DNA from: Actinomycetota bacterium
GTDB lineage: Bacteria; Actinomycetota; Acidimicrobiia; Acidimicrobiales; Poriferisodalaceae
Assembly (NCBI GenBank): GCA_039185015.1
Contig: JBCDAU010000012.1
Span: 57,637 to 121,636, forward strand
Direction of reading: 5' to 3'
Length of the DNA stretch: 64,000 bases
Below the pieces are notes generated by a model that worked only from the letters and a program-made list of their open reading frames with translations, was not told where the DNA came from and did no database searches. Made by a program: the position numbers and the translations under genes. Positions within the stretch are counted from its first letter, which is position 1; each line of letters begins with the position of its first letter. This document shows, one piece after another, positions 26,134 through 57,885 of the stretch.

Positions 26134-29100
26134 TCAGCCCTCGTCGAGCGCCGCGACGATCCGGTCCAGCGCGGCGACGACCGGGGCCGACGGATCGGCG
26201 GCGGTGCGGGCCGCCCAGCGGTCGCAGATCTCCGCCCAGCGCTGCGCGTCCTCCGGTGACAGGGCATCCCGCAGGGCCCCCAGCGCCAGGAGGTTCTGCT
26301 CGGCCCGGTCGGTGAGCGTCTGCGCCTCGGAGGCGTAGTGCTCGTCGACCGCCTCGTCGAGCTCGTCCTCGGTCATCGCCGGCACCACCTGGGCGGCGAT
26401 GCGGGCCATGTTGCGGTACGAGCCCTGGAGCAGGAACGGCGGCGCGACACGGTCCTCGTCGCTCGTCGCCGCCGAGGCGACGTAGGCGCCGTTGACCTGC
26501 ATCAGGACCGCCTGCGCTCGGCGCACCAGCCGCAGCACCCGCACCGCCTCGTCGAGCTCACCCGGCTCCCACCGGTGGGCCAGCCCGTCGGTGGTGGGGG
26601 CCCGTCGGCCGTCGGCCATGGCCACCAGCGGCTCGACGTCGTCGAGGAGCCTGGCGGCGTGCGCCGCCAGCGCCGGAGTCGCCGTCAGGCTGTTCTCGAC
26701 GTAGGAGAGCGCGAACTCGGCGGCGTACTCGTCGGCGACGTCGCCGAGGTTGTGGACGTCGGCGCGGTTCACGAGCATGTCCGGCAGCTCGAAACGGGCC
26801 CCGCCGGTGGAGTACGGGTTGCCGGCCATCACGACGGCGAAGCGCCGGCCCCGCAGGTCGAAGGTGCGGGACGCGCCGTCGACGACGCCCTCGATGCGGC
26901 GGGTCGCGTCCGCCAACGGGATGAACCGGGACAGCAGATCGGGACTCGTGAACTGGATGTCGTCGATGAACAGCAGGACGTTGCGGCCCATCTGCAGCGC
27001 CAGGTTGATCTTGGCCACCTCGGCCCGTGCGGCGGCATTCGGCGCATCGGCCGGATCGAGCGACGTCGTCGCCGTGCCCAGCGCCGGACCGTTCACCTTG
27101 ACCATCAGCATCCCGAGCCGATCGGCGACCCACGACATCAACGTGGTCTTGCCGTAGCCGGGCGGGGAGGTCAGCACGAGCAGACCAGAGCGGGCGAGGT
27201 CGGTGGCATCGACGGCGCCGATCTGCCGGGCCAGGTTCGTGCCGACGAGTGGGAGCAGCGCCCGGTCGATGAGGCGGTTCCGGACGAACCCGGCCATCAC
27301 CTTCGGCCGATGCTCGTCGAGATCGACGGCGGCGCGCACCTCCTCGACGACGGCCTTCCGGGCCTCCTGGTAGGCCGGCCAGCGCTCGGCCATCCGCGTC
27401 AACTCGCCGCCGACGCGGTCTGCGAGCTCGTCGAAGCGCACCGCGAGCGAGCCGTCGGCGAGCTGTGGATGGTCGCCGACCAGACCCTCGACGGTGACCG
27501 TGCCGGGATGGCGGATCTCGCGAACGTCGACCTCGGGAGCGGCGAGCAACGAGGCGGCCTCGTCAACGTCGAACGCGAGATCCTCGAGCCCCTCGGCGCG
27601 CACCAGCCCCGCCACCCAGTCCCGGGCCACGAGGAAGCGGTCGACGGCAGCGTCGTTCGCCTCGATGGCGAGCTCGAGCTCGCGACGGCCCTCCTCCCCC
27701 AGCTTGTCCCGGAGGCGGCGCACCAGATCGGCGGCGGTCGATGCTGCGGCCACGGCGTCGCCGTCACGGCCGAGCTCGTCCACCAGGAACGCGGCGACTC
27801 GATCGATCTCCGGCATGCCATCGAGGCCGGCGAGCTCCTCGACCACCTCGACTCGGAGACGATCGAGGCCGTCGGCGACGCCGACCCGCTCCTGAGCCGC
27901 GCGGGCGGAGCGGGCGCGGGCGACCAGCGCCGTGCGCTTCGCCTCGGTCAGCCCTCGCACGGCGACACGACCCCACGCCCGGGCCGCACCGGGATGGCGC
28001 AACACCGGATCGGTCGCCCCGCGGGGCAGCACCGCACCGAGGATGCGGGCCGCGTCGTGATCGTGCACTCCGACCTCGTACCCCTCGCCGTGACGGCGCT
28101 CGGCCTCGGTCCGGCACCGGGCTGCGATCTGGTCGGGCACCGCGGCCGCCGACACGAGGTCGGCGAGTCCCTCGGCGCCTGCCGCGTCGACCACGGCCCA
28201 GGCCAGGTACTCGCCTCGGTAGATCGAGGCCGTCTCGGACGGGTGCGGTCGGTCGAGGAGGTCGGCGAACTCATCGAGTCGCTCCGTGACGTCGAGGCGG
28301 AACTCGGTTCCGGTGACCGCGACCTCGACGCCGCCGTCGGACGACGGCGCCAGCACGAGCTCGACCGGTTGCGCGTTGGGGGCGAAGCGAGACCCACCGA
28401 AGGCGATCGCGCCGTCATCGGCCACGAGGTCGGCGGTGTCGCGGACCCGGCGTCGGGCCTCCTCTGCGGCCGCGGCGAGGGCCGACCGAACCTCGGCGGC
28501 CTGCCCGGTCTCGCCGAGGTCGTCGAGCTCGGTGGCCAGGTCGCGGACGCGGGCGACCATCTGGTCGGCGGCGAAGAAGCCGGCGATGCCGGCCTCGTCC
28601 TCGGCTTCGGCGGCACGTCGGGTGATCGTCACCAACAGGCGATCGGCGGCCTCGGCGATGCGGCGTGCCCGCCGGTTGCGTTCATCGACGAGCTCGGACC
28701 GGCGCGCGCCGAACGCCTCGTTGATCCGGTCACGGAGCTCCGCCACGCGGACGACGCGCTCGGGGTCGTCGGCGTAGCGGGCGTCGATGCGCTCGGCGTT
28801 GACGAGCAGACGGGCGAGCTCGGCGTCGCACTGCTCTGGGGTGGAGGCAGCGACCACGGCGCCGGACAACGTCTGTTCGACCAACGCGAGCTCGGCGTCG
28901 AACGCCTCGGCCGACTCGGCGTCGCGGCGGCGACGTTCCTGACCGTCGAGCACCGCCCGGGCGCGGTTGGCGGCGGCGGACACGTCGGCCACTCGTCGGA
29001 CGATCCGCGTGCGCGCCGTCGGGTCGCCGCCGTCGAGCGAGGAGACCGCATCGACGACGGCATCGAGATCACCGGTGACCTCGTCGAGCCGCTCTGCGAC

Positions 29101-30984
29101 GGCGGCGACCTCGGCGGCGGTCGGCGCAGACTCGCCCTCCGCGACGAGGCCGTCGAGACGGGTCGAGAAGTCGGCGAACGCGGTGTCGCTGTCGAGTACG
29201 GACGCCGCCCGCTCGGCCAGCTCGCCGATGGCGCCGTCGAGCCGCTCTACGAGCGCCCCGATCCGTTCGTCGTCGGCCTGCGGAACGTCCAGCAGCAGCG
29301 CGGCCTCGCCACGGGATCGCCGCAGCGCACCCAGGGCGGAGACGACCTCGGTCGGCGTCGATGCCTGCCCGGCGGAGTCGACGACGCGCTGCGCAGTGCG
29401 CTCGGCGTCGCCGACGGTGGTCTCCGCCTCGGCCTGCTGGCGGCGGACCTTGGCGTACTCGTCGACGATCTGCCCGGCGGTGTCGACCACACCCCGGAGT
29501 CCCTCGTGGACGCCGGCAGCCTGCTCGTCGATGAGCCAGAGGTGGGTGTCGAGAGCGCGTCGGGCGGCCGAGATGATCGACTCCCAGGTGCGCTCGGACG
29601 GCTCGGCCTCCTCGACCAGGCGGGCGACGTCGTAGGCGTCGCCGAGACCGCGGACGAGGTCGGCGTTCCCGACGCGACGGACCCACGGGTCGCCCTCCTC
29701 GCTGCCGACGACCCGGTGGTCGGGATCGGCGAACGCGGTCTCCCACCACTGCACGGGGTGCACCATCGAGGGCTCGGAGTCCTGCGCAGCCGCCCGGAAG
29801 AGCACCGTCGTCCCGTCGCCGAACGGTGCGAACCCATGGCACGGGATCAGCTGGGCGATCTCCTTCCGGACGAGGTTGTACGGCGCCAGGAGGTAGTCCC
29901 CGCCGTCCCGCTCGTGGAAGACGTACAGCACGTCCTCGCCGTTCGGAGCGACCAACGCCTCCTCGAAGATCATGTCCGTCGCGGCGACGTCGAACAGGCG
30001 CGTGCCGGTCGTGGCGAGGTGGTAGCCACCGGGGAACACCACGCCGTCACCGCCCGGGAGGACGCGGCACGCCTCCAGCACGGCGTCGACGCGGGTCACG
30101 AGCCGCGTGCGGCGACCCATCACGTAGCAGCGCTCGGGCTCGGCGTAGAGCGCGACACGCACGAGCAGCACCTCGCCGACGACGGCGTAGGCGACCGTGA
30201 CGTCGGCCAACGACTGCCCGGGCACCTCGACCGCCTCATCGATCTCGATGCGGCCGTCGGGCCGTCCGTCGTCGACCCGCACCTGAAGTCGACCACCGCG
30301 AAAGCCGACAAACGCCTCGCCGCTCACCGACACGACCGGATGGGCGCCGGCGACCTGATCCTCACGGGTGCAGGCGATCCAGTCGAAGTCCTGCGCCGGC
30401 GGCCAGACGTAGTCCCGATCGCCGCGGGCGTCGAGAAAGGTGACGGAGCCGTCCGGTTCGATCGCCCACCGGAGCACGGTGAGGTCGTCGAGGCGGTCGC
30501 CGATGCGGAACGCGGCGAGCAGCTGGCCGCCGGCGACGCGGAGGTCGGCGAAGCGGGCCTTGCCGTAGAAGCGATAGAGCTTGTCGAACTCCTCGCGGAA
30601 CGCCGGGTCGGTGAGGAAGTTGGCCGGGTCGTCGGCGGCGACGGGCACGAGGTCGGGCGTGTCGCCGCCCGAGTCGACCCGCCGGTAGAGCGCGAGGACG
30701 TGCTCGGGCTCGATGCCGGCCAGGTCGAGCGACACGTTGTAGCCGAGCACGAGGAGGTCGCCGACCCGGACGAGGTCACGGGCCTCGCAGGCGACCTCCG
30801 TCTGGAGCCGGTCGGAACCGAGCAGGCGCAGCGTCGATGAGCCGAAGGCCTCGGTGCGAAGCGCGTCGATGGCGGCCGCGGCCTCGCTCAGCTCGCGGGC
30901 GGTGGTGACGAGGCGCCGACGCAGCAGGTCGTAAGACCCGCCGGTCGGCGCCGCCCCCGGATCGTCGGTGGCGGTGTCGGTCAC
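26134..30984 (-). CDS. giant (1616-aa) AAA+ ATPase-domain protein. The N-terminal ~1100 aa have no recognisable domain and the AAA module is near the C-terminus.
   Basis: Walker A LVLTSPPGYGKTTL, Walker B NVLLFIDDIQ, sensor RFAVVMAGNP. Its start lies 8 bp after the flotillin stop on the same strand. Confidence 0.8.
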   Translation of the reverse strand: MTDTATDDPGAAPTGGSYDLLRRRLVTTARELSEAAAAIDALRTEAFGSSTLRLLGSDRLQTEVACEARDLVRVGDLLVLGYNVSLDLAGIEPEHVLALYRRVDSGGDTPDLVPVAADDPANFLTDPAFREEFDKLYRFYGKARFADLRVAGGQLLAAFRIGDRLDDLTVLRWAIEPDGSVTFLDARGDRDYVWPPAQDFDWIACTREDQVAGAHPVVSVSGEAFVGFRGGRLQVRVDDGRPDGRIEIDEAVEVPGQSLADVTVAYAVVGEVLLVRVALYAEPERCYVMGRRTRLVTRVDAVLEACRVLPGGDGVVFPGGYHLATTGTRLFDVAATDMIFEEALVAPNGEDVLYVFHERDGGDYLLAPYNLVRKEIAQLIPCHGFAPFGDGTTVLFRAAAQDSEPSMVHPVQWWETAFADPDHRVVGSEEGDPWVRRVGNADLVRGLGDAYDVARLVEEAEPSERTWESIISAARRALDTHLWLIDEQAAGVHEGLRGVVDTAGQIVDEYAKVRRQQAEAETTVGDAERTAQRVVDSAGQASTPTEVVSALGALRRSRGEAALLLDVPQADDERIGALVERLDGAIGELAERAASVLDSDTAFADFSTRLDGLVAEGESAPTAAEVAAVAERLDEVTGDLDAVVDAVSSLDGGDPTARTRIVRRVADVSAAANRARAVLDGQERRRRDAESAEAFDAELALVEQTLSGAVVAASTPEQCDAELARLLVNAERIDARYADDPERVVRVAELRDRINEAFGARRSELVDERNRRARRIAEAADRLLVTITRRAAEAEDEAGIAGFFAADQMVARVRDLATELDDLGETGQAAEVRSALAAAAEEARRRVRDTADLVADDGAIAFGGSRFAPNAQPVELVLAPSSDGGVEVAVTGTEFRLDVTERLDEFADLLDRPHPSETASIYRGEYLAWAVVDAAGAEGLADLVSAAAVPDQIAARCRTEAERRHGEGYEVGVHDHDAARILGAVLPRGATDPVLRHPGAARAWGRVAVRGLTEAKRTALVARARSARAAQERVGVADGLDRLRVEVVEELAGLDGMPEIDRVAAFLVDELGRDGDAVAAASTAADLVRRLRDKLGEEGRRELELAIEANDAAVDRFLVARDWVAGLVRAEGLEDLAFDVDEAASLLAAPEVDVREIRHPGTVTVEGLVGDHPQLADGSLAVRFDELADRVGGELTRMAERWPAYQEARKAVVEEVRAAVDLDEHRPKVMAGFVRNRLIDRALLPLVGTNLARQIGAVDATDLARSGLLVLTSPPGYGKTTLMSWVADRLGMLMVKVNGPALGTATTSLDPADAPNAAARAEVAKINLALQMGRNVLLFIDDIQFTSPDLLSRFIPLADATRRIEGVVDGASRTFDLRGRRFAVVMAGNPYSTGGARFELPDMLVNRADVHNLGDVADEYAAEFALSYVENSLTATPALAAHAARLLDDVEPLVAMADGRRAPTTDGLAHRWEPGELDEAVRVLRLVRRAQAVLMQVNGAYVASAATSDEDRVAPPFLLQGSYRNMARIAAQVVPAMTEDELDEAVDEHYASEAQTLTDRAEQNLLALGALRDALSPEDAQRWAEICDRWAARTAADPSAPVVAALDRIVAALDEG

Positions 30985-30991
30985 CGGGCCG

Positions 30992-33010
30992 TCAGTCGCG
31001 GCCGTCGAGGAGCTCGCCGACCGAGCGGTCGCCGAGCCCGCCGTCGGTCACCGCCTGCCGCAGCCGGGTGGCGAGCTCGCCCCCGGACGAGCCGAGGTTG
31101 GCGCTCAACCGGGTGACGAGGTCGGCGATGGTGAGGTCTCGGACTCCGGCGGCTCCGACACCGCCCAGTCCCTCGGAGACGTCGCTCACGATGTTGCCGT
31201 TCCCCTCGAGATAGGGAGCGAGCAGCCGCTTGCCGGTCGCTCCGTTGTCGACGAACCCGTCCAGCGCCTGGCCGTGACCGGCCGCGGACAGGATCCGCTC
31301 GACGATGCCCTCGTCGGAGACGATCTGCATGTCGGCGTTGGACAACGACTCGCCGAGCGCGGACGCCGCCGACTTGGCGACGTCGGCCCGTGCCTCGATG
31401 GCGGCGAGGTCGATCTCCCGCTCGACGTCGAGCCGCAGGCGGAACTCCTCGTGGTCCTGCCCGGCGGCGGTCATCGCACCGACACCCTCGGACTTGGCCT
31501 TGAGCCCCTCGCCCTCGCCCTCCAATCGGGCCTGGGTCGCGTCGCCCTCGGCGACGCCGAGCTCGCGCACCGCCTCGGCCTGGGCCCGCTGGACCTCGAC
31601 GTCGGCGAGGCCGGTGGCCCGGATGGCATCGGCCCGCTCGCGCTCGACCTGCACGTCGGCGAGCCCGTCGGCCGCCGACTCGGCCTGCGTGCCCTCGGCC
31701 CGCCGCTTGGACGCCTCCATCTCCTGGGAGGCGGCATCGGCCTCGGCGCGGGCGAGGATCGTGCGTCGCTCGGCCTCGGATCCCGCTGCCTGCTTGTCGG
31801 CGTCGGCTTCCTTCACCTTGGCGATGAAGGCCGCCTCGGCGGTGCCCTCGGCCGACTTCACCTCGGCGGTGGCGTGGCGCTGGGCGTCCTCGACGACGCG
31901 CAGGGTCGCGATCTCCTCTTCCTTCTGGGCGACGCCGAGATCGGCCTCGACCCGACCGCGTGCGACCTCGGCGAGCTCACGGGACCGCAGCTCCTTCTCC
32001 TGACCGGCCTCTGCCACCGCGGTGTCGCGGCCGACGACGGCGAGCAACCGGTCGCGCTCGATCTCCTCGGTCTGGACGGCGATCACGCGCTGACGGTTCG
32101 CGTCGGCGAGAGCGACCTCGCGGTCCTTGTTCTGCTCGGCGACGCCGATGCCCTGATCGGTCGTGATCCGGGCCTCCTCGGCCAGCCGCCTGGACTCGGC
32201 CTCGACCTCCGAGGCCGACGCCTCCGCGCGGGCCTGCACGGTGCGGATCTCCTGCTGCTGGCGCGCCTCGGCCTCGGCCCGGTCGCGCTCCATCTCGAAG
32301 ACGGCCTTGTCGGCATCGGTCGTCCGCCGGGTGGTCTCCTCGCGCTCGCGCTCCTGCGCGTCGTTGGTGCGGATGTGCTGGTCGGCGGTGCGCTCGGTGA
32401 TCTTCCGGATGCCGTCGGCGTCGAGGATGTTGTCGGGGTCGAGCGCCTCGATCGGCGTCTGCTCCAGGTAGTCGATGGCGACGTCCTCGAGGACGTACCC
32501 GTTCAGGTCCTGCCCGATGATCTCGATGATGGCGTCCTTGAACTCCTGCCGGGAGATGTAGAGCTCCTCGAACTCGAACTGCTTGCCGGCGGTCTTCAGG
32601 GCCTCGGAGAACTTGGCGGCGAAGAGGTCGCGCATCGTGGCGATGTCGGAGGCGCGCTCGCAGCCGACCTGCTGGGCGACTCGGATGACGGCAGCCTCGG
32701 TCTTGTCGACCTTCACGTAGAACTCGACGGCGATGTCGGCCCGGACGTTGTCCTTGCAGACCAGGCCGTCCTTGCCTCGCCGATCGATCTGGATGTTCTT
32801 GACCGAGATGTCCATGGTCTCGGCCTTGTGGATCACGGGGATCACGACCTGTCCGGTGAAGGTGACCACGACGGTCCTCCACTTGGAGACGACGAGCGCC
32901 TGGCCCTGCGGGACCTTGCGGAACAGTCGCGTGACGATCAGCGCCAACCCGAGGATGACGACGAGGGCGATCGCGATGGCGACGCCGGCAGCGGTGAGGA
33001 TCCCATCCAT
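30992..33010 (-). CDS. flotillin-family (SPFH/band-7) protein with a long Ala/Glu-rich coiled-coil tail
   Basis: Start MDGILTAAGVAIAIALVVILGL (TM anchor). SPFH core ...VPQGQALVVSKWRTVVVTFTGQVVIPVIHKAETMDISVKNIQI... The upstream part of the track ORF was trimmed. Confidence 0.85.
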   Translation of the reverse strand: MDGILTAAGVAIAIALVVILGLALIVTRLFRKVPQGQALVVSKWRTVVVTFTGQVVIPVIHKAETMDISVKNIQIDRRGKDGLVCKDNVRADIAVEFYVKVDKTEAAVIRVAQQVGCERASDIATMRDLFAAKFSEALKTAGKQFEFEELYISRQEFKDAIIEIIGQDLNGYVLEDVAIDYLEQTPIEALDPDNILDADGIRKITERTADQHIRTNDAQEREREETTRRTTDADKAVFEMERDRAEAEARQQQEIRTVQARAEASASEVEAESRRLAEEARITTDQGIGVAEQNKDREVALADANRQRVIAVQTEEIERDRLLAVVGRDTAVAEAGQEKELRSRELAEVARGRVEADLGVAQKEEEIATLRVVEDAQRHATAEVKSAEGTAEAAFIAKVKEADADKQAAGSEAERRTILARAEADAASQEMEASKRRAEGTQAESAADGLADVQVERERADAIRATGLADVEVQRAQAEAVRELGVAEGDATQARLEGEGEGLKAKSEGVGAMTAAGQDHEEFRLRLDVEREIDLAAIEARADVAKSAASALGESLSNADMQIVSDEGIVERILSAAGHGQALDGFVDNGATGKRLLAPYLEGNGNIVSDVSEGLGGVGAAGVRDLTIADLVTRLSANLGSSGGELATRLRQAVTDGGLGDRSVGELLDGRD

Positions 33011-33017
33011 CGGTGAC

Positions 33018-33635
33018 TCAATCTCCTGTTTCCGGGAACATGTCGGACTCGCGGACCACCGTGTAGGTCGACGCCTCCGGGTCGAACTCGACGAGTCGGA
33101 TGCGGTCGCCGGCGGCGAGGCCGAGCGACTTCTCGTCACGGATCTCGATGCGCGACTGGGAACCGTCCTCCCAGTCGGCGTCGGCGTAACCGAAGCGGCC
33201 GTCGACGCGACCGGAGCGGACGACGGCGGGCTGACCGATGAGCTCCCGGCCGTGCGGTGCACGAGCGGTCTCGAGACGATCGCCGAGCGGGCGGGCGATG
33301 CGCGCGCCGAGCAGGACGCCTCCGGCCAACGCGACCGCGGCGACCACCAGGCCGACCACGATCGCCGCGGCGCCGTCGAGCGGATCGACCACGACGAGCT
33401 GGCCGACGATCGCCAGGAACCACCCGATCAGCGTGACGATGCTCACGACGACCAGCGGGGGGACGCCGGCGACGCCGAGCGACTCGAACGCCTCGTCGAG
33501 CGCACCTTCTCCGGCGTCCGACTCGAGGTCGAGGAAGCCGACGATCGAGATCGCCCACAGGACGAGGCAGATCACCAGCGGGACACCGAACACCAACCCG
33601 AGCGGACTCGTCGCCGCATCCCAGAACTCGGTCAC
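33018..33635 (-). CDS. NfeD-family membrane protein (TM N-terminus plus C-terminal OB-fold)
   Basis: Hydrophobic N-terminus, then ...AVVRSGRVDGRFGYADADWEDGSQSRIEIRDE...GDRIRLVEFDPEASTYTV. Sits directly upstream of the flotillin gene, which is the classic pairing. Confidence 0.7.
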   Translation of the reverse strand: MTEFWDAATSPLGLVFGVPLVICLVLWAISIVGFLDLESDAGEGALDEAFESLGVAGVPPLVVVSIVTLIGWFLAIVGQLVVVDPLDGAAAIVVGLVVAAVALAGGVLLGARIARPLGDRLETARAPHGRELIGQPAVVRSGRVDGRFGYADADWEDGSQSRIEIRDEKSLGLAAGDRIRLVEFDPEASTYTVVRESDMFPETGD

Positions 33636-35247: not shown

Positions 35248-36639
35248 CTACTCGCTGGGTTCGGTCGGCGGTGCCGGCGGCTCGTCGCCGGGGCACGGCG
35301 CTGCGAACAGGTGAGCCCCCGGCGTCGGATCGGTGAACCGGCACCCGTAGTCCGGAGCCGCCACGGCCGCCGGGTCGAGGATCGGGTCGCCCTCGGGACG
35401 CACGTCGTCCTCGACCCAGGTGACGAGGTCGGCGAAGGCCTGCTCGTACTCGGCGAGGGTGAAGTCGCAGTGGCCCGAGCCTCGGATGGCCCGCTGCACG
35501 AGCAGGTGCTCGCGACCCCAGGACGCCACGTCCTCGGCGTAGTCGATCTGCATGCCGAACGGCACGAACAGGTCGCCGAGGTTGTGCAGCGACAGCACGG
35601 GGTCCGAGATCCGGCCGGTGATCGCCTCGTTCTTCCGAGCCGAGGGATGGGCCGTCACGCGAGCGATCGCGTCGTTGAAGGCGGCCTCCTCGTCGCTCAC
35701 CGCAGGGTCGAGGTCGAGCTGGTACACGTCGTGGGAGTTGTCCACGACGTTCTGGCCGCCGCTGTTCGGCAGCGTGCCATCGCCGAGACCGAGGTCGAAC
35801 AGGAAGTTGCCCGGTCCGGTGCCGTTGTCGGGGAACGTGTTCCAGAAGAACCACGCCTCGTCGAAGTTCGGCCGATCGCCGCCGCTCTCCAGCTCGGCGA
35901 ACTGCTTGAACGTCTCGCCGGTCTCGTTGAGCACGGTCGGCCAGCCGTCCGGCGCGAACTCGAGCGCCGCCTTGATCGCCGGGACCGTCGCCCCGACGTA
36001 CGCCAGTGGGTCGACCGGGAAGGCCGACGTTCCGGTGCCGAGCTGCTGGGCGCCGAGGTTGAACGACAGGAAGTAGTCGAAGAGCTCGTAGTCGCCCATG
36101 ACGCCGCAGACCGGCAGGGCGCCGTCGTAGAGCCAGCGGTAGCGCTCCATCGAGTAGCCGGTGACGTGGCCACCCATCGACGCGCCGGAGAGGTAGATCC
36201 GGTCCGGCCAGTGGTCGAGCACACGGCGGCCCATGTACGAGGCCAGGATCTTGGTCGACAGCGCTCCCGAGAGGATGTCGTATCCGTTGCGGTCGTAGCT
36301 CGAGGCGGCCCACGCGTAGCCCTGCGACAGGGCGTACTCGCGGAACGGCAGGTTGTCGACGGTCAGCTCGGGGACGTCACCCCGGAACCCGTGCGCCCAC
36401 ATCACGAGGTCGCCGTTCCAGTCAGCGGGGATCTCGTAGCGGTAGGCGGCGCCTCGCCAGACACCCCAGCCCTGCTCGGCGTCCTCGAACCCGGGCAGCG
36501 GCTCGAAGGGCAACGTCGACTCGTCGACGAAGAACTGCGGCCCCTCCGGCTCGCCGGTGTCCTGCGCCGACGACGTGCCGACGGCGAGCAGGCTGGCGAG
36601 CAGCACCACGGACAGCATGAGCAACGACCTTCGACGCAT
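35248..36639 (-). CDS. secreted alpha/beta-hydrolase-fold protein
   Basis: RBS ggagggg. Signal peptide MRRRSLLMLSVVLLASLLAVGTSSA. Nucleophile elbow GASMGGH. Confidence 0.75.
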   Translation of the reverse strand: MRRRSLLMLSVVLLASLLAVGTSSAQDTGEPEGPQFFVDESTLPFEPLPGFEDAEQGWGVWRGAAYRYEIPADWNGDLVMWAHGFRGDVPELTVDNLPFREYALSQGYAWAASSYDRNGYDILSGALSTKILASYMGRRVLDHWPDRIYLSGASMGGHVTGYSMERYRWLYDGALPVCGVMGDYELFDYFLSFNLGAQQLGTGTSAFPVDPLAYVGATVPAIKAALEFAPDGWPTVLNETGETFKQFAELESGGDRPNFDEAWFFWNTFPDNGTGPGNFLFDLGLGDGTLPNSGGQNVVDNSHDVYQLDLDPAVSDEEAAFNDAIARVTAHPSARKNEAITGRISDPVLSLHNLGDLFVPFGMQIDYAEDVASWGREHLLVQRAIRGSGHCDFTLAEYEQAFADLVTWVEDDVRPEGDPILDPAAVAAPDYGCRFTDPTPGAHLFAAPCPGDEPPAPPTEPSE

Positions 36640-36667
36640 GGACCCCTCCGTTCGCGACGCCGACACG

Positions 36668-38698
36668 CTACTGCCCGCCGGACCCCCGTTCGGCCATGCC
36701 GTTCGCGGGCGGTGTCGCACGCCATGGCGCACCAGTTCGCAACCACGTGGCGAACGTCTCGCCGTCGACCGCTGAGGCCCACAGCCAACCCTGCGCTCGT
36801 TCGCAGCCGAGCGCCGCCACGAGCTCGGCCTGATCCTGCTGCTCGACCCCCTCGGCCACGACGGGCAGGCCGAGCGCCGTGGCCAGGTCCACCGTCGCCG
36901 CGACCACGGCGCGACCGGCTCCGGGGCGGAGTCCGCCGAGGAGCAGGCCCCGATCGAGCTTGAGCCCGTCGAGCGGGAGGCGAGCGAAGAGGGACAGCGA
37001 CGAGTAGCCCGTACCGAAGTCGTCCAGGTAGACGCCCACCCCTCGAGATCGGACCTCGCGGAGCACATCGACCACGCGGTCGACGTCACTGGCCACCGCG
37101 GTCTCCGTCACCTCGATGACGACCCCGTGCGGGGGACATCCCGCGTCACCGATCGCTCCGAGGAGCACCTCCATCGCCTCGGCGTCGAGCTCGCTCGGGC
37201 TCACGTTCACGTGCACGACGAAGTCGTCGTCGACGAGCCCCGCGACGCGAGCCCGGAAGGCGAACGCCTCCCGGCGCACCACGCCATCGAGCTCGGCACC
37301 GAGCCCCGCCTCCTCGGCGAGCGGGAGGAACTCCGATGCCGGACGGAGCTCGCCATCCGGTCGCGCCCATCGGGCGAGCGCTTCGGCCCCGACGATCCGA
37401 CCCGAGGTCGGATCGATCACCGGCTGGAACCGTGCGCTGAACTCCCCGGCGCTCAGGGCAGCACGGATCTCGATCTCGTCGTCGAGGCGGCGCTGGAGCT
37501 CATCGCGGAGACCCGCGTCGAAGACCGCGACCTGGTTCCGCCCCGCGGCCTTGGCGCGATATAGCGCCGCGTCGGCGTGGCGAAGCAGGTCGTCCGGTTC
37601 GTCGAGGTGGTCGCGGTCGAGGCTGACCCCGACGCTCGCCGTCATCTTGACCTCTCTCCCTTCGAGGACGAACGGAGCGGTGAACGACGAGGAGACCCGT
37701 TCGGCGACCGCGATCGCCTCCTCGGCGTCGGCAAGGTTCGTGAGCAGCACGGTGAACTCGTCGCCACCGAGTCGCGACAACGCGTCTCCCTCACGCAGGA
37801 GCGGGCGAACCCGTTCACCCACCTCACGGAGCAACGCGTCGCCCGCGGCGTGACCGAGCGAGTCGTTCACGACCTTGAACCGGTCGAGATCGAAGAAGAG
37901 CACGGCGATCGTGGAGCCCTCCCGCCGTGCTCTCGCCATGGCCGTGGTGAGGTGCTGAGTGAACAGCGAACGGTTGGCCAGTCCCGTGAGCGTGTCGTGC
38001 GTGGCCTGGTCGGCCAGTGATGCGTTGGCCGCCGCCAGCTCCTCGTTGACCTCGACGAGGCGCTCCCGCTCGCCGACGAGCTCCTCGGCCAGGACGCTCC
38101 TCTCGTGGGCGTCGACCGCCGCCCGGACGGTGTCGGCGTGACCCACGGACTGGAGGTGGATCGACACGAGCGCCCCGTAGACGACCACGCCGGCGAGCAG
38201 CTGCCCGAACGAACCTGCAGATGCGAAGCCGATCACCGACATCGTGCTCAGGACGAGGACCCCGCTGTAGAACAGCGGCCGGACGGCACCGGAGTAGATC
38301 GTCGCCGAGGCGAGCAGCCCGTAGACGAACACGACGAGCAGCGCCTGCCAGCGGGGGTCCTCGGGGAGGGCGAGCAGCGAGATCGACCCCCAGCCGGTCG
38401 ACGACACGATCTGGCCGACCACGAGCGCTCGTCGGCTGGCTCCCCGACCGTCGCCAGCGGCCATGCGCCGGGCACCGACGGTCTGGATGGTGTTGCCGAG
38501 GGCGGCGGCGAACGCCCAGAGCAACAGCCCGCCCTGATCCGCCTTCGTCCAGAACACGGAAACGACCGCGACGATCGTCGGGTAGGCGGCGAGCCCGGCC
38601 TGACCGAGCAGCGTCGCCGTACGGCCCCACAGCCGGTCCTCGACCGCCGCGCTCGCCCGATGCTCGGGAGCGTCGGCGCCGCACGGTTCGGACATCAT
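36668..38698 (-). CDS. membrane sensor diguanylate cyclase/phosphodiesterase (multi-TM N-terminus - GGDEF - EAL)
   Basis: GGDEF region: RLGGDEF, DTLTGLANR. EAL region: EALARW...DDFGTGYSSL...Q... The upstream part of the track ORF is antisense to the SDR gene and was trimmed. Confidence 0.85.
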   Translation of the reverse strand: MMSEPCGADAPEHRASAAVEDRLWGRTATLLGQAGLAAYPTIVAVVSVFWTKADQGGLLLWAFAAALGNTIQTVGARRMAAGDGRGASRRALVVGQIVSSTGWGSISLLALPEDPRWQALLVVFVYGLLASATIYSGAVRPLFYSGVLVLSTMSVIGFASAGSFGQLLAGVVVYGALVSIHLQSVGHADTVRAAVDAHERSVLAEELVGERERLVEVNEELAAANASLADQATHDTLTGLANRSLFTQHLTTAMARARREGSTIAVLFFDLDRFKVVNDSLGHAAGDALLREVGERVRPLLREGDALSRLGGDEFTVLLTNLADAEEAIAVAERVSSSFTAPFVLEGREVKMTASVGVSLDRDHLDEPDDLLRHADAALYRAKAAGRNQVAVFDAGLRDELQRRLDDEIEIRAALSAGEFSARFQPVIDPTSGRIVGAEALARWARPDGELRPASEFLPLAEEAGLGAELDGVVRREAFAFRARVAGLVDDDFVVHVNVSPSELDAEAMEVLLGAIGDAGCPPHGVVIEVTETAVASDVDRVVDVLREVRSRGVGVYLDDFGTGYSSLSLFARLPLDGLKLDRGLLLGGLRPGAGRAVVAATVDLATALGLPVVAEGVEQQDQAELVAALGCERAQGWLWASAVDGETFATWLRTGAPWRATPPANGMAERGSGGQ

Positions 38699-38819
38699 CC
38701 CCCATCGGCAGGGCCAGACCGACCGATGAGCACCACGAGGGAGCCGCAGCGTCGGCGGATCCGGATCCGCCCCAGCCGCTCGGGCGTCGCCGCCGAGGTG
38801 ACCGCTACGCTCCGCGGCG

Positions 38820-39593
38820 ATGACCGACGCACCACTGCCGAACGCATCCCATGATCTGACCGGCCGGGTGGCCATGGTCACCGGTGCCACCTCGGGGCTC
38901 GGCTGGCGATTCGCCCAGGTGCTCGCCGCCGCCGGCGCCACCGTCGTCGGGACCGGACGCCGGACGGATCGACTCGACCAGCTGGCTGCCGAATCGGCCG
39001 AGCTCGGCACGATCATCGGCGTCCAGATGGACATGACCGACACCGAGAGCATCCTCGGCGGTGTCGACACCGCCGAGGATGCCGTCGGCACGATCGACAT
39101 CCTCGTCAACAACGCCGGCGTCCCCGACGCCCAGCGGGCGCACAAGATGCCGGTCGAGCTGATCGACCGGGTGATCGACACCAACCTCCGAGGCCCGTAC
39201 GTGCTCTCGTGCGAGATCGCCCGCCGGCTGATCGCCGCCGAACGACCCGGTGCGATGGTGAACATCTCCAGCGCGTCCGGCTTCCACTACGACGGTCACG
39301 GCGCCGCGCTCTACTCGGTGACCAAGGCGGCGATCGCCCGGATGAGCGAAGCGCTCGCCGTCGAGTGGTCTCGCTACCGGATCAACGTGAACTGCATCGC
39401 TCCGGGCGCCTTCAGCTCCGAGATGATGGACGGCATGGTCGAACGCATGGGTGACATCAGCCAGCACTTCCCCCGCAAGCGGATGGGAGATCCGTCCCAG
39501 CTCGACTCGACCCTCCTCTACCTCTGCTCCCCGTCCTCCGACGCGGTCACCGGTGCCATCCTCCGCGTCGACGACGGACAAGGACCTCGCTGA
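38820..39593 (+). CDS. SDR-family oxidoreductase
   Basis: VTGATSGLG and NNAG motifs, with a YxxxK-type catalytic region. Confidence 0.85.
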   Translation: MTDAPLPNASHDLTGRVAMVTGATSGLGWRFAQVLAAAGATVVGTGRRTDRLDQLAAESAELGTIIGVQMDMTDTESILGGVDTAEDAVGTIDILVNNAGVPDAQRAHKMPVELIDRVIDTNLRGPYVLSCEIARRLIAAERPGAMVNISSASGFHYDGHGAALYSVTKAAIARMSEALAVEWSRYRINVNCIAPGAFSSEMMDGMVERMGDISQHFPRKRMGDPSQLDSTLLYLCSPSSDAVTGAILRVDDGQGPR

Positions 39594-39594
39594 G

Positions 39595-40335
39595 ATGACG
39601 CTCTCGACCGACACCTACCTCGACCACACCCGAACCGGCGGCGCCGCCTTCGCCGACGCCTTGATCGGCGCCGACGTCGATGCCCCGGTGGTCGCCTGCG
39701 GCGACTGGACGGTCGCCGACCTCGTCGGGCACATCGGCACCGTGCACCGCTGGGCGGCCGTGGCGTTGCGCGAGGGCCGGCAGCCCGGCCGCGACGACCT
39801 GGCCGACGCACCGCCCTTCGACCCATCGGACGCGTCCGGGTGGTACCGGGCCTGTCTCGACGACATCGTCGCCGAGCTCGAGGCAGCCGATCCGGTCGCC
39901 TCGTCGTGGCACCCGTTCCCCGTCGAGCAGGTCGCCGGGTTCTGGTTCCGCCGGATGGCGCACGAGATCGCCGTCCATCGCTGGGACCTCGAGCACGCCG
40001 TCTCGACGCCGACGACCATGGATCCGGCCCTCGCCTCGGACGGGATCGACGAGTACTTCGAGGTCACGATCCCACGCCTGGTCGTCCAGGGGCGGGACCT
40101 CCCGACGAGCAGCTTCCACGTGCACTGCACCGACGTCGAGGGCGAGTGGCTCGTGTGGACCGAGGACGGTGACTACCGGATGGTCCGCGAGCACCGAAAG
40201 GGCGATGCCGCGCTGCGGGGTCCGGCCGAGCAGCTGCTGCTGCGGATGTGGAACCGACCGGCGCCGGACGACGAGCTGAGCCCCGTCGGCGACGAGACCG
40301 CCTTCGTCGACTGGACGTCCCTCGGCGGTAACTGA
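39595..40335 (+). CDS. maleylpyruvate isomerase-family mycothiol-dependent enzyme (MDMPI N-terminal domain family)
   Basis: ...WTVADLVGHIGTVHRWAAVAL... The track ORF from 39451 has a Ser/Pro/Thr-rich extension overlapping the SDR gene. The ATG at 39595 immediately follows the SDR stop. Confidence 0.75.
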   Translation: MTLSTDTYLDHTRTGGAAFADALIGADVDAPVVACGDWTVADLVGHIGTVHRWAAVALREGRQPGRDDLADAPPFDPSDASGWYRACLDDIVAELEAADPVASSWHPFPVEQVAGFWFRRMAHEIAVHRWDLEHAVSTPTTMDPALASDGIDEYFEVTIPRLVVQGRDLPTSSFHVHCTDVEGEWLVWTEDGDYRMVREHRKGDAALRGPAEQLLLRMWNRPAPDDELSPVGDETAFVDWTSLGGN

Positions 40336-57568: not shown

Positions 57569-57885
57569 GAGGTCGCTCCCGTGTCGTCGCTGGACTCGAC
57601 GTGATCGACGAAGGCGGTCAGGACGTCGTCCCAGAACGAGTCCACCCACGCCCGAACCTCGCCGAGCGTGCCGAGGTCGACGGAGTAGAGCCGTCGGGTC
57701 CCGTGTTCCCGCACTCGAACCAGGCCGGCGTCGTGCAGCACCCGGAGGTGCTGCGACACGGCGGACTGCGTCACCGGCAGGGCGTCGGTCAGCTCGCGCA
57801 CGGTCTGCTCGCCGTCGCGGAGCAGTCGGAGGACCGCCCTGCGGTTCGGGTTGCCCAGCGCATCGAGCGCCGCTTCATCAGTCAC
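57565..57885 (-). CDS. ArsR/SmtB-family transcriptional regulator
   Basis: ...LGNPNRRAVLRLLRDGEQTVRELTDALPVTQSAVSQHLRVLHDAGLV... Confidence 0.85.
   Translation of the reverse strand: MTDEAALDALGNPNRRAVLRLLRDGEQTVRELTDALPVTQSAVSQHLRVLHDAGLVRVREHGTRRLYSVDLGTLGEVRAWVDSFWDDVLTAFVDHVESSDDTGATS

Follow-up and report, generated by a model that had tools for sequence, protein, structure and literature searches.

A conserved three-gene unit encoding a YqiJ-like protein, a flotillin and a DUF3686 ATPase in an acidimicrobial genome: a candidate ATP-driven membrane assembly

The three-gene locus

We analyzed a cluster of three genes in a 64,000-nucleotide stretch of contig JBCDAU010000012.1 (GenBank assembly GCA_039185015.1, forward-strand positions 57,637 to 121,636), which derives from an Actinomycetota bacterium of the Acidimicrobiia, family Poriferisodalaceae, and is referred to here, over its full length, as the window. 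The window has a G+C content of about 71%. All three genes lie on its minus strand, and all feature coordinates given for them refer to that strand. Gene 1 (33018..33635, GTG start) encodes a 205-amino-acid small membrane protein of the YqiJ/YuaF type (NfeD-like), gene 2 (30992..33010, with its ATG at 33010) a 672-residue YqiK-type flotillin of the SPFH2 class, and gene 3 (26134..30984, GTG start) a 1616-residue soluble ATPase with the arrangement DUF3686-DUF7902-AAA+. An initial annotation of this DNA, made from its letters alone, had described three co-directional genes with gaps of 7 and 8 base pairs. The open reading frames (ORFs) and their tight spacing are confirmed, although both spacers are 7 nucleotides long when read directly: GTCACCG between the gene 1 TGA and the gene 2 ATG (33011..33017), and CGGCCCG between the gene 2 TGA and the gene 3 GTG (30985..30991).

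The three genes are more than chance ORFs. Homologues of each of the three proteins number in the hundreds, and the two large genes have the codon-position bias typical of real high-GC genes, with G+C contents of 0.91 to 0.92 at the third codon position (GC3) and 0.49 to 0.51 at the second (GC2). A plus-strand shadow ORF of 1500 codons (26338..30840) fails the GC3/GC2 filter and was rejected as a gene. Genes 1 and 2 each have a Shine-Dalgarno-like GGAG motif ahead of the start; that of gene 2, AGGAG, lies just ahead of the ATG and inside the 3' end of gene 1, and the mechanically called ORF of this gene extends upstream as far as 33262. The start of gene 1 is most plausibly the GTG at 33635, which has GGGGGAG before it.

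Domains and models of the three proteins

The ATPase shares 100% identity with a protein named 'DNA repair ATPase' that NCBI records from a metagenome-assembled genome (MAG) of Actinomycetota. It matches three Pfam families, two of them strongly: DUF3686 (PF12458) at residues 31-481 (29542..30894; E = 1.7e-132, 442.6 bits against a cut-off of 25), and DUF7902 (PF25472) at residues 602-684 (28933..29181; E = 7.7e-20, 71.3 bits against a cut-off of 26). The third, AAA, is matched weakly. Of the related models, AAA_5 (PF07728) reaches 21.6 bits, just short of its cut-off of 22, over positions 3-130 of a 139-position profile, and AAA_3 (PF07726) has E = 0.028. The AAA+ module is thus not the only recognizable one, as had been supposed, and the first 1100 or so residues, described as having no nameable domain, do have one over about 700 of them; segment 880-1260 has no Pfam match, and neither has segment 1420-1616. 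The N terminus matches no characterized enzyme, so that an ordinary fusion to a well-characterized enzyme family is set aside. The N-terminal 1100 residues have homologues in 883 clusters (50% identity, E ≤ 1e-3). Pfam detects no nuclease, protease, NADase, peptidase, DNA-binding or other effector domain in the protein, hydropathy analysis no transmembrane segment, and searches against PDB sequences return either nothing or matches to the Walker A region only.

AlphaFold2 models were built for the ATPase in two parts, residues 1-520 (pLDDT 92.8, pTM 0.91) and residues 417-1616 (pLDDT 82.1, pTM 0.67). The first contains a helix at 16-47, about 27 β-strands between 53 and 415, and helices at 433-519, so that the DUF3686 region appears as an N-terminal helix, a β-propeller-like domain, and helices packing back on the first helix; according to this model, the N terminus is predicted to fold as a helical bundle plus a propeller-like domain. 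In the second, continuous long helices run to about residue 850 and are followed by a small β unit, a helical middle domain, the AAA+ core, and a helical C terminus; DUF7902 lies inside a long helical stalk (about residues 520-850). The highest-ranked Foldseek matches, to dynein heavy chains, have TM-scores of only 0.13 to 0.14 by query and 0.05 by target; they reflect the combination of an AAA module with long helices and give no indication of a dynein-like architecture.

The AAA+ α/β core (residues 1266-1412; 26749..27189), of MoxR/AAA_5 type, carries the motifs that had been quoted for it (GYGKTT, hhhhDD and AGNP). Walker A is PPGYGKTT (1274-1281; 27142..27165) and Walker B is VLLFIDD (1336-1342; 26959..26979), with Asp-Asp instead of Asp-Glu. 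A two-stranded insert precedes sensor 1 in the model, a predicted pre-sensor-1 β-hairpin at residues 1363-1376 (26857..26898) formed by two antiparallel strands (E947-952 and E955-960 in model numbering). The sensor-1 region extends from VVMAGNP (1384-1390) to LPDMLVNR (26764..26835) and includes N1406 and R1407 as a candidate arginine finger, and the remaining C-terminal region (1413-1616; 26137..26748), all-helical in the model, includes QGSYR (1520-1524), a possible sensor 2. We judged invariance over 45 family members, down to 25% identity, in two alignments (A1 and A7). Walker A residues G1276 to T1280 are invariant in A7, with T1281 invariant in A1 and at least 90% conserved in A7; D1341 and D1342 of Walker B, G1388, N1389, P1390, P1401, D1402, M1403, L1404, N1406 and R1407 of the sensor-1 region, and Q1520 to R1524 are likewise invariant. 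From these residues the nucleotide site appears intact and MoxR-like. A further motif, GYEVGVHDHDA (968-978; 28051..28083), stands in the otherwise poorly conserved helical middle domain, where no Pfam family matches; G972, H974 and D977 do not vary, D975 reaches at least 90% conservation, and the motif may serve as a metal or catalytic site or touch the AAA+ module.

The question of which AAA clade the motor belongs to, left open between MoxR/AAA_5 and others, has a fairly clear answer at the level of the model. The fold of the core plus lid has MoxR members as its best structural matches by a clear margin, and the predicted motor would accordingly be placed in the MoxR clade. It shares with CbbQ, NorQ and RavA, and with the related midasin and dynein AAA modules, the core-plus-lid fold, the predicted pre-sensor-1 hairpin, and the sensor-1 'NP', and the weak AAA_5 and AAA_3 alignments run over the whole length of these profiles. 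The sensor-1 region also resembles what we take to be the MoxR motif, ATxNP...LPxAxxDRF. There are differences: the matched MoxR chains are 254 to 267 residues long, whereas the module in gene 3 is C-terminal to a 1,250-residue propeller/helical extension, and the canonical hhhhDE of Walker B is replaced by DD. Weak matches to RuvB, by sequence and by Foldseek, are also present, the sequence match being confined to the Walker A region.

The flotillin begins with a single hydrophobic segment (residues 1-28; 32927..33010; Kyte-Doolittle peak 3.06) that is a predicted membrane anchor and is followed by the basic residues TRLFRK; by the positive-inside rule, the rest of the protein would be cytoplasmic. 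An SPFH/Band_7 domain (PF01145) occupies residues 32-216 (32363..32917) and is matched with E = 1.2e-10 and 42.1 bits (cut-off 23.6) when the N-terminal 264 residues are scanned alone; it is the best-conserved part of the protein, with a mean identity of 0.62 among 73 orthologues. The coiled-coil region (residues 230-560; 31331..32323) is 22% Ala, 16% Glu and 11% Arg and aligns with the coiled coil of Escherichia coli YqiK, which is annotated as a flotillin family inner membrane protein, and a Gly-rich C-terminal tail follows (residues 561-672; 30995..31330), which has no Pfam match and no alignment to the C-terminal part of YqiK. BLASTP relates the flotillin to YqiK with E = 8e-34 and 26% identity over 482 residues, and a profile of the 73 orthologues aligns with YqiK residues 10-435 in hhalign (probability 99.8%, E = 1.8e-30). 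The description of gene 2 as a flotillin with an Ala/Glu/Arg-rich tail of about 300 residues is therefore well founded.

This identification does, however, need a truncated query or a profile-profile comparison. The full-length flotillin matches nothing in Pfam even at E = 10, and the NCBIfam scan is likewise empty, probably because the Ala/Glu/Arg-rich coiled coil trips the HMMER composition filter. Pfam Flot (PF15975), which covers YqiK residues 406-530, matches neither residues 550-672 alone nor the full-length protein, and the hhalign alignment enters the YqiK Flot domain by only 30 residues. Searches against PDB sequences gave no useful match. In the Flammeovirga orthologue, the precomputed Pfam field is empty. 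Automated annotation probably misses this flotillin subfamily systematically.

Gene 1 encodes three hydrophobic segments (19-residue Kyte-Doolittle windows, peaks 2.4 to 2.8) within residues 6-115 (33291..33620), arranged as an N-terminal transmembrane helix, an acidic linker, and two further transmembrane helices; its orthologues share the N-terminal motif FPTVVFTxLL..YWL (alignment A2). The soluble C-terminal domain (residues 125-205; 33021..33263) is presumed to be an OB-fold of NfeD/YqiJ type and aligns to the YqiJ_OB part of E. coli YqiJ. When a profile of 20 orthologues is compared with YqiJ, the two align over 130 columns (hhalign probability 94.3%, E = 1e-7), spanning the last two transmembrane helices and the C-terminal β domain; the relationship emerges from profile-profile comparison only. 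E. coli YqiJ itself carries Pfam YqiJ_N and YqiJ_OB, but gene 1 and its orthologues fall below the Pfam thresholds for YqiJ_N, YqiJ_OB and NfeD. The gene 1 protein has no match in Pfam or NCBIfam; 19 orthologues scanned one by one in Pfam have none except a weak YqiJ_N in one, and a further four have none. NfeD (PF01957) matches neither the gene 1 protein nor the 19 orthologues at E ≤ 1, and the Deinococcus orthologue matches it below threshold (E = 0.0078, 16.8 bits against a cut-off of 29.1). RefSeq labels the Hymenobacter orthologue 'DUF1449 family protein', and the YqiJ-like profile has no useful match among PDB sequences. Since Hinderhofer et al. (2009, PMC2636767) have argued that YqiJ is homologous to NfeD, the term NfeD-like is apt in a loose sense, as YqiJ/YuaF-type, even though the Pfam NfeD model fails. 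Routine Pfam annotation thus overlooks both membrane partners of the ATPase.

Conservation and genomic context of the unit

The arrangement was followed through 80 loci from a scan of one genome per species in a collection of 185,579 species, in which at least 566 ATPase relatives were confirmed among the matches listed. The 80 loci come from Actinomycetota (Streptomyces, Micromonospora, Nonomuraea and Ilumatobacter among others), Myxococcota, Gamma- and Betaproteobacteria, and one MAG labelled Clostridia; loci from Flammeovirga and Hymenobacter (Bacteroidota), Deinococcus, Proteus, Vibrio, Halomonas, and the Pseudomonas fluorescens plasmid pQBR103 were added. As a block, the unit recurs in Actinomycetota, Myxococcota, Pseudomonadota, Bacteroidota, Deinococcota and the Clostridia-labelled MAG. 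Wherever the upstream DNA suffices (80 of 80 loci), a gene for a flotillin of this subfamily lies upstream of the ATPase gene on the same strand, and the possibility that the ATPase is not conserved next to flotillin in related genomes is thereby set aside. Of 76 testable loci, 71 also have a YqiJ-like gene ahead of the flotillin, and the five exceptions are all from Streptomyces. No other gene family is common to more than 27 of the first 80 loci; the all-against-all ORF clustering behind this statement is noisy from high-GC shadow ORFs and was used solely to establish that there is no widely conserved fourth gene.

The association also holds in the reverse direction. Among 72,556 plasmid and chromid records, 13 carry the ATPase, and the 13 best SPFH matches to the flotillin (44 to 65% identity) come from exactly these 13 records, after which identity drops to 34% or less in ATPase-free records. 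This drop and the one-to-one correspondence indicate that the ATPase-linked flotillins are a distinct subfamily with an obligate partner. A neighbor-joining tree of the N-terminal region of the ATPases largely tracks phylum boundaries, and the closest relatives of the window ATPase, at 55% identity, are from Ilumatobacter-like Acidimicrobiia.

Several loci depart from the common pattern. Only in Myxococcales bacterium 68-20 (locus L070, 1945-7877) is the flotillin-ATPase pair split, by four co-directional genes encoding an OmpA-family protein with thrombospondin repeats, a DUF11 surface protein, a LamG-like protein, and a CopD-like membrane protein. In the five exceptional Streptomyces loci (L021, L034, L049, L064 and L067) no YqiJ-like gene is detectable upstream of the flotillin, and in three others (L011, L030 and L040) the YqiJ-like gene aligns by its N-terminal transmembrane part only, which suggests that the C-terminal domain was lost or has diverged in this lineage. 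The ATPase of the 'uncultured Clostridia bacterium' MAG (L071, 64% G+C) groups in the tree with that of a deltaproteobacterial MAG; the contig may be mis-binned or the locus horizontally transferred, and the presence of the triad in Bacillota is therefore on weak ground. ATPase orthologues of 1800 to 2000 residues, with an additional C-terminal extension of 200 to 400 residues, are found in gammaproteobacterial and myxobacterial loci and in the Clostridia-labelled MAG (L055, 7905-13406; L076, 7669-13677; L079, 7929-13337; L071, 7998-13559; L070, 7881-13733), and the extensions of L055, L070 and L076 have no Pfam match.

The first two genes have well-known counterparts. E. coli YqiJ-YqiK and Bacillus subtilis YuaF-FloT show the same two-gene order, in which a small transmembrane protein with a C-terminal β domain is followed by a membrane-anchored coiled-coil flotillin, and the homology of the E. 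coli pair to the window pair is detectable by BLASTP and hhalign. Unlike the window, E. coli yqiJK has no ATPase gene downstream, and the window-type flotillins, 44 to 65% identical to one another and at most 34% to other flotillins in the plasmid collection, form a subfamily of their own.

In 5 of the 87 loci, a gene for PspA/IM30 adjoins the triad. In three gammaproteobacterial loci (L055, L076 and L079), DUF2170 (CesT/Tir-like) and PspA_IM30 genes are directly upstream, and a Hymenobacter plasmid (L088) has the order 'molecular chaperone Tir', PspA/IM30, DUF1449, SPFH ('hypothetical protein') and 'DNA repair ATPase', so that a five-gene form (CesT/Tir, PspA, YqiJ-like, flotillin, ATPase) is recovered in these four loci. 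The fifth (L083), with PspA only, is on pQBR103, a megaplasmid of P. fluorescens SBW25 (NC_009444.1, 85443-100966), where a PspA-led operon runs into the triad: PspA/IM30, a rhomboid protease, DUF2491, DUF350, DUF1190 and a glutathionylspermidine-synthase-like gene precede it, and after it comes an MvaT/MvaU-family gene on the other strand. No PspA or DUF2170 homologue was found in the 64-kilobase window, and the window locus therefore fits an abbreviated, minimal three-gene form.

This organization has been described before. In a comparative-genomics study, Ravi et al. (mSystems 2024, PMC11237479) reported an operon of YqiJ/YuaF, a Band-7/flotillin protein, and a β-propeller/coiled-coil AAA+ ATPase, together with CesT/Tir and PspA, and noted that abbreviated operons without PspA are more widespread; their supplementary table shows the same order in Dokdonia donghaensis (neighborhood of ANH61663.1). 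The three components, gene order and domain architectures are those of the window, and the ATPase family includes Bacteroidota members, although the window has no adjacent PspA, CesT/Tir or phospholipase D gene. As the paper gives no Pfam accession, it is architecture, gene order and phylum that point to the two ATPase families being one and the same. The association is thus a published computational observation with a generic functional suggestion, and the novelty implied by the initial annotation is overstated; the literature search returned no experimental study. DUF3686, PF12458 and DUF7902 are mentioned by no paper in the searched library, and none was found that connects 'DNA repair ATPase' with flotillin or SPFH. 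We conclude that the locus represents the minimal, actinobacterial form of an operon type that Pfam and a single comparative-genomics paper had already catalogued.

The neighbors of the triad in the window are housekeeping genes, for an HrpA-type helicase, a dehydrogenase, a TetR regulator, a 2OG oxygenase, YjbR, an NYN-domain protein and a GGDEF-EAL protein, and no tRNA genes were found in the window; scans for promoters and terminators yielded nothing informative. A high-GC3 ORF of 613 codons without a Pfam match (35248-37089, minus strand) overlaps the 3' end of the upstream GGDEF-EAL gene (36668-39265, minus strand) by about 420 nucleotides in another frame, and its start was probably mis-set by the mechanical ORF call. 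On the plus strand, 39451-40335 encodes a protein in which domains of mycothiol-dependent maleylpyruvate isomerase (MDMPI_N/C) and of the DinB superfamily are recognized, as would fit DNA of actinobacterial origin.

A flotillin-linked ATPase and its candidate functions

The idea that the flotillin and the ATPase form one machine is strongly backed by the two-way synteny, and to that extent the proposal of a co-operonic, flotillin-anchored machine stands; the physical anchoring of the ATPase to the flotillin is what we infer from sequence and gene order. We suggest that the locus encodes a membrane-associated, ATP-driven assembly around a flotillin scaffold, a remodeller for the handling of membrane stress, and we give this reading about an even chance of being correct. 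In such an assembly, the YqiJ-like protein and the flotillin would form a cytoplasm-facing oligomeric scaffold of SPFH/NfeD type, by analogy to other SPFH/NfeD pairs (QmcA-YbbJ; flotillin-1/2) that form domed or cage-like oligomers. The soluble ATPase would probably dock on this scaffold through its propeller and helical N-terminal half, and its AAA+ module would probably hydrolyze ATP and thereby remodel the scaffold itself or proteins held there, for instance PspA/IM30 polymers or unfolded membrane proteins; this would serve to maintain the membrane during envelope stress. Of the functions offered by the initial annotation (membrane remodelling, stress or defence), the first two are favored by context, because PspA/IM30 genes lie beside the triad in five loci, and defence is not. 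Two published observations are of related interest: an SPFH protein is reported to be needed for the recruitment of PspA to the membrane in B. subtilis (PMC8581546), and Staphylococcus aureus FloA-NfeD is reported to stabilize unfolded proteins without ATP (PMC11222466).

The best-established precedents for an SPFH scaffold coupled to a membrane AAA+ machine are HflK/C-FtsH and prohibitin-m-AAA. The gene 3 ATPase would be an analogue of FtsH and not a member of its group: FtsH is membrane-anchored and has a protease domain, whereas the ATPase has neither a transmembrane segment nor a peptidase domain, and its AAA+ clade is a different one. HflK/C also face the periplasm, whereas the window flotillin is predicted to be cytoplasmic.

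Several observations weigh against an ATP-driven assembly on a flotillin scaffold. The Gly-rich flotillin tail, which would be the obvious docking site, is the least conserved region of the protein (identity 0.21 to 0.31 among the 73 orthologues), and the idea that it is a conserved docking module was dropped for that reason. Asp-Asp in place of Asp-Glu in Walker B means that hydrolysis could be slow or regulatory, and the AlphaFold2 model is of a monomer and has no bearing on ring formation. Characterized MoxR ATPases are known to work with a VWA-domain partner; no VWA/MIDAS partner lies near the window ATPase, no VWA domain was found among the scanned neighbors, and no further family is conserved across the loci. 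A PspA gene adjoins so few of the triads, and the window has none. Lastly, the literature search returned no experimental study of the operon, by interaction, localization or phenotype.

The link to PspA raises the question as to whether the ATPase is a bacterial counterpart of Vps4, in which case two versions have to be considered. In the broader one, which we hold to be unlikely but well worth stating, the DUF3686 ATPase powers both flotillin and ESCRT-III (PspA/IM30) remodelling in bacteria, with a MoxR/dynein-type module and a propeller/coiled-coil adaptor seated on the flotillin dome, and would drive assembly, disassembly or client extraction where the membrane is damaged. In the narrower one, PspA/IM30 is the true substrate, flotillin and YqiJ are a mere platform, and the ATPase assembles or disassembles PspA polymers at damaged membrane. 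The PspA_IM30 and CesT/Tir-like genes directly upstream of the triad in Gammaproteobacteria and Bacteroidota, and the longer operon on pQBR103, are consistent with it; links between SPFH proteins and ESCRT-III have been noted in archaea and B. subtilis, and a recent review (2025) observes that bacteria apparently have no Vps4-like ATPase for the ESCRT-III proteins PspA and Vipp1. As in Vps4-ESCRT-III and PspF-PspA, an AAA+ ATPase is here genomically coupled, in some triad members, to a protein of the ESCRT-III superfamily. The coupling is facultative, however: PspA is adjacent in only those 5 of 87 loci, whereas flotillin is adjacent in all testable ones, and the 64-kilobase window has no PspA gene. 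The ATPase has no MIT domain by Pfam, its module is not of the classical AAA clade to which that of Vps4 belongs, and Pfam detects in it no DNA-binding domain of the kind found in PspF. We therefore regard PspA as the true substrate, with flotillin as platform alone, as distinctly improbable.

A role in anti-phage defence or abortive infection, in which a propeller-sensor NTPase would trigger membrane perturbation through flotillin and YqiJ upon infection, has some general appeal. Many defence systems have large NTPases with repeat-type sensor domains, the triad is present on some megaplasmids including pQBR103, and the locus is accessory and not universal (the at least 566 relatives among the matches listed, set against 185,579 species). 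We found, however, that PADLOC-DB v2 gives no significant match for the three proteins, whole or in segments; the best are to DruC (E = 0.0057, 13 bits) and to generic TRIP13/IetA P-loops (E = 0.0017 or worse). No homologue is present among 50,697 phage records, and Pfam detects no nuclease, protease, NADase or other effector domain. The neighbors in the window are housekeeping genes, the conserved extra partner, where there is one, is PspA and not a defence gene, and the tree follows taxonomy, unlike the scattered transfer typical of defence islands. With the PADLOC, phage-record and tree results all against it, a defence function was dropped as very improbable. A DNA-repair or nucleoid-associated ATPase, as the NCBI name and the Pfam description ('ATPase involved in DNA repair') have it, is scarcely credible and was also dropped, as the RuvB sequence match is limited to Walker A and the fold is closest to MoxR members, while the partners that never vary are two membrane proteins, Pfam detects neither a DNA-binding nor a nuclease domain, and no paper was found in the searched library that ties DUF3686 to DNA repair; the database name 'DNA repair ATPase' is probably wrong.

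The reading of the locus as an ATP-driven assembly on a flotillin scaffold bears on two gaps. The function of bacterial flotillins is still debated, and the literature search found no partner that would supply flotillins (the SPFH2 class) with energy, whereas HflK/C have FtsH; and the apparent lack of a Vps4-like ATPase would leave bacterial ESCRT-III-like remodelling without a known power source. The triad, as a strictly co-inherited flotillin-ATPase pair with an occasional hard-wired link to PspA, is a concrete candidate for both. To the description by Ravi et al. are added the two-way correspondence between ATPase and flotillin, the assignment of the motor to the MoxR clade according to its model, a high-confidence model of the DUF3686 region, and a set of invariant residues that can be mutated. 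Streptomyces, Myxococcus and Proteus, genera that carry the triad, are genetically tractable. The triad may thus offer a tractable entry to two open questions, the role of flotillins in bacteria and the source of power for ESCRT-III-like membrane remodelling in these organisms.

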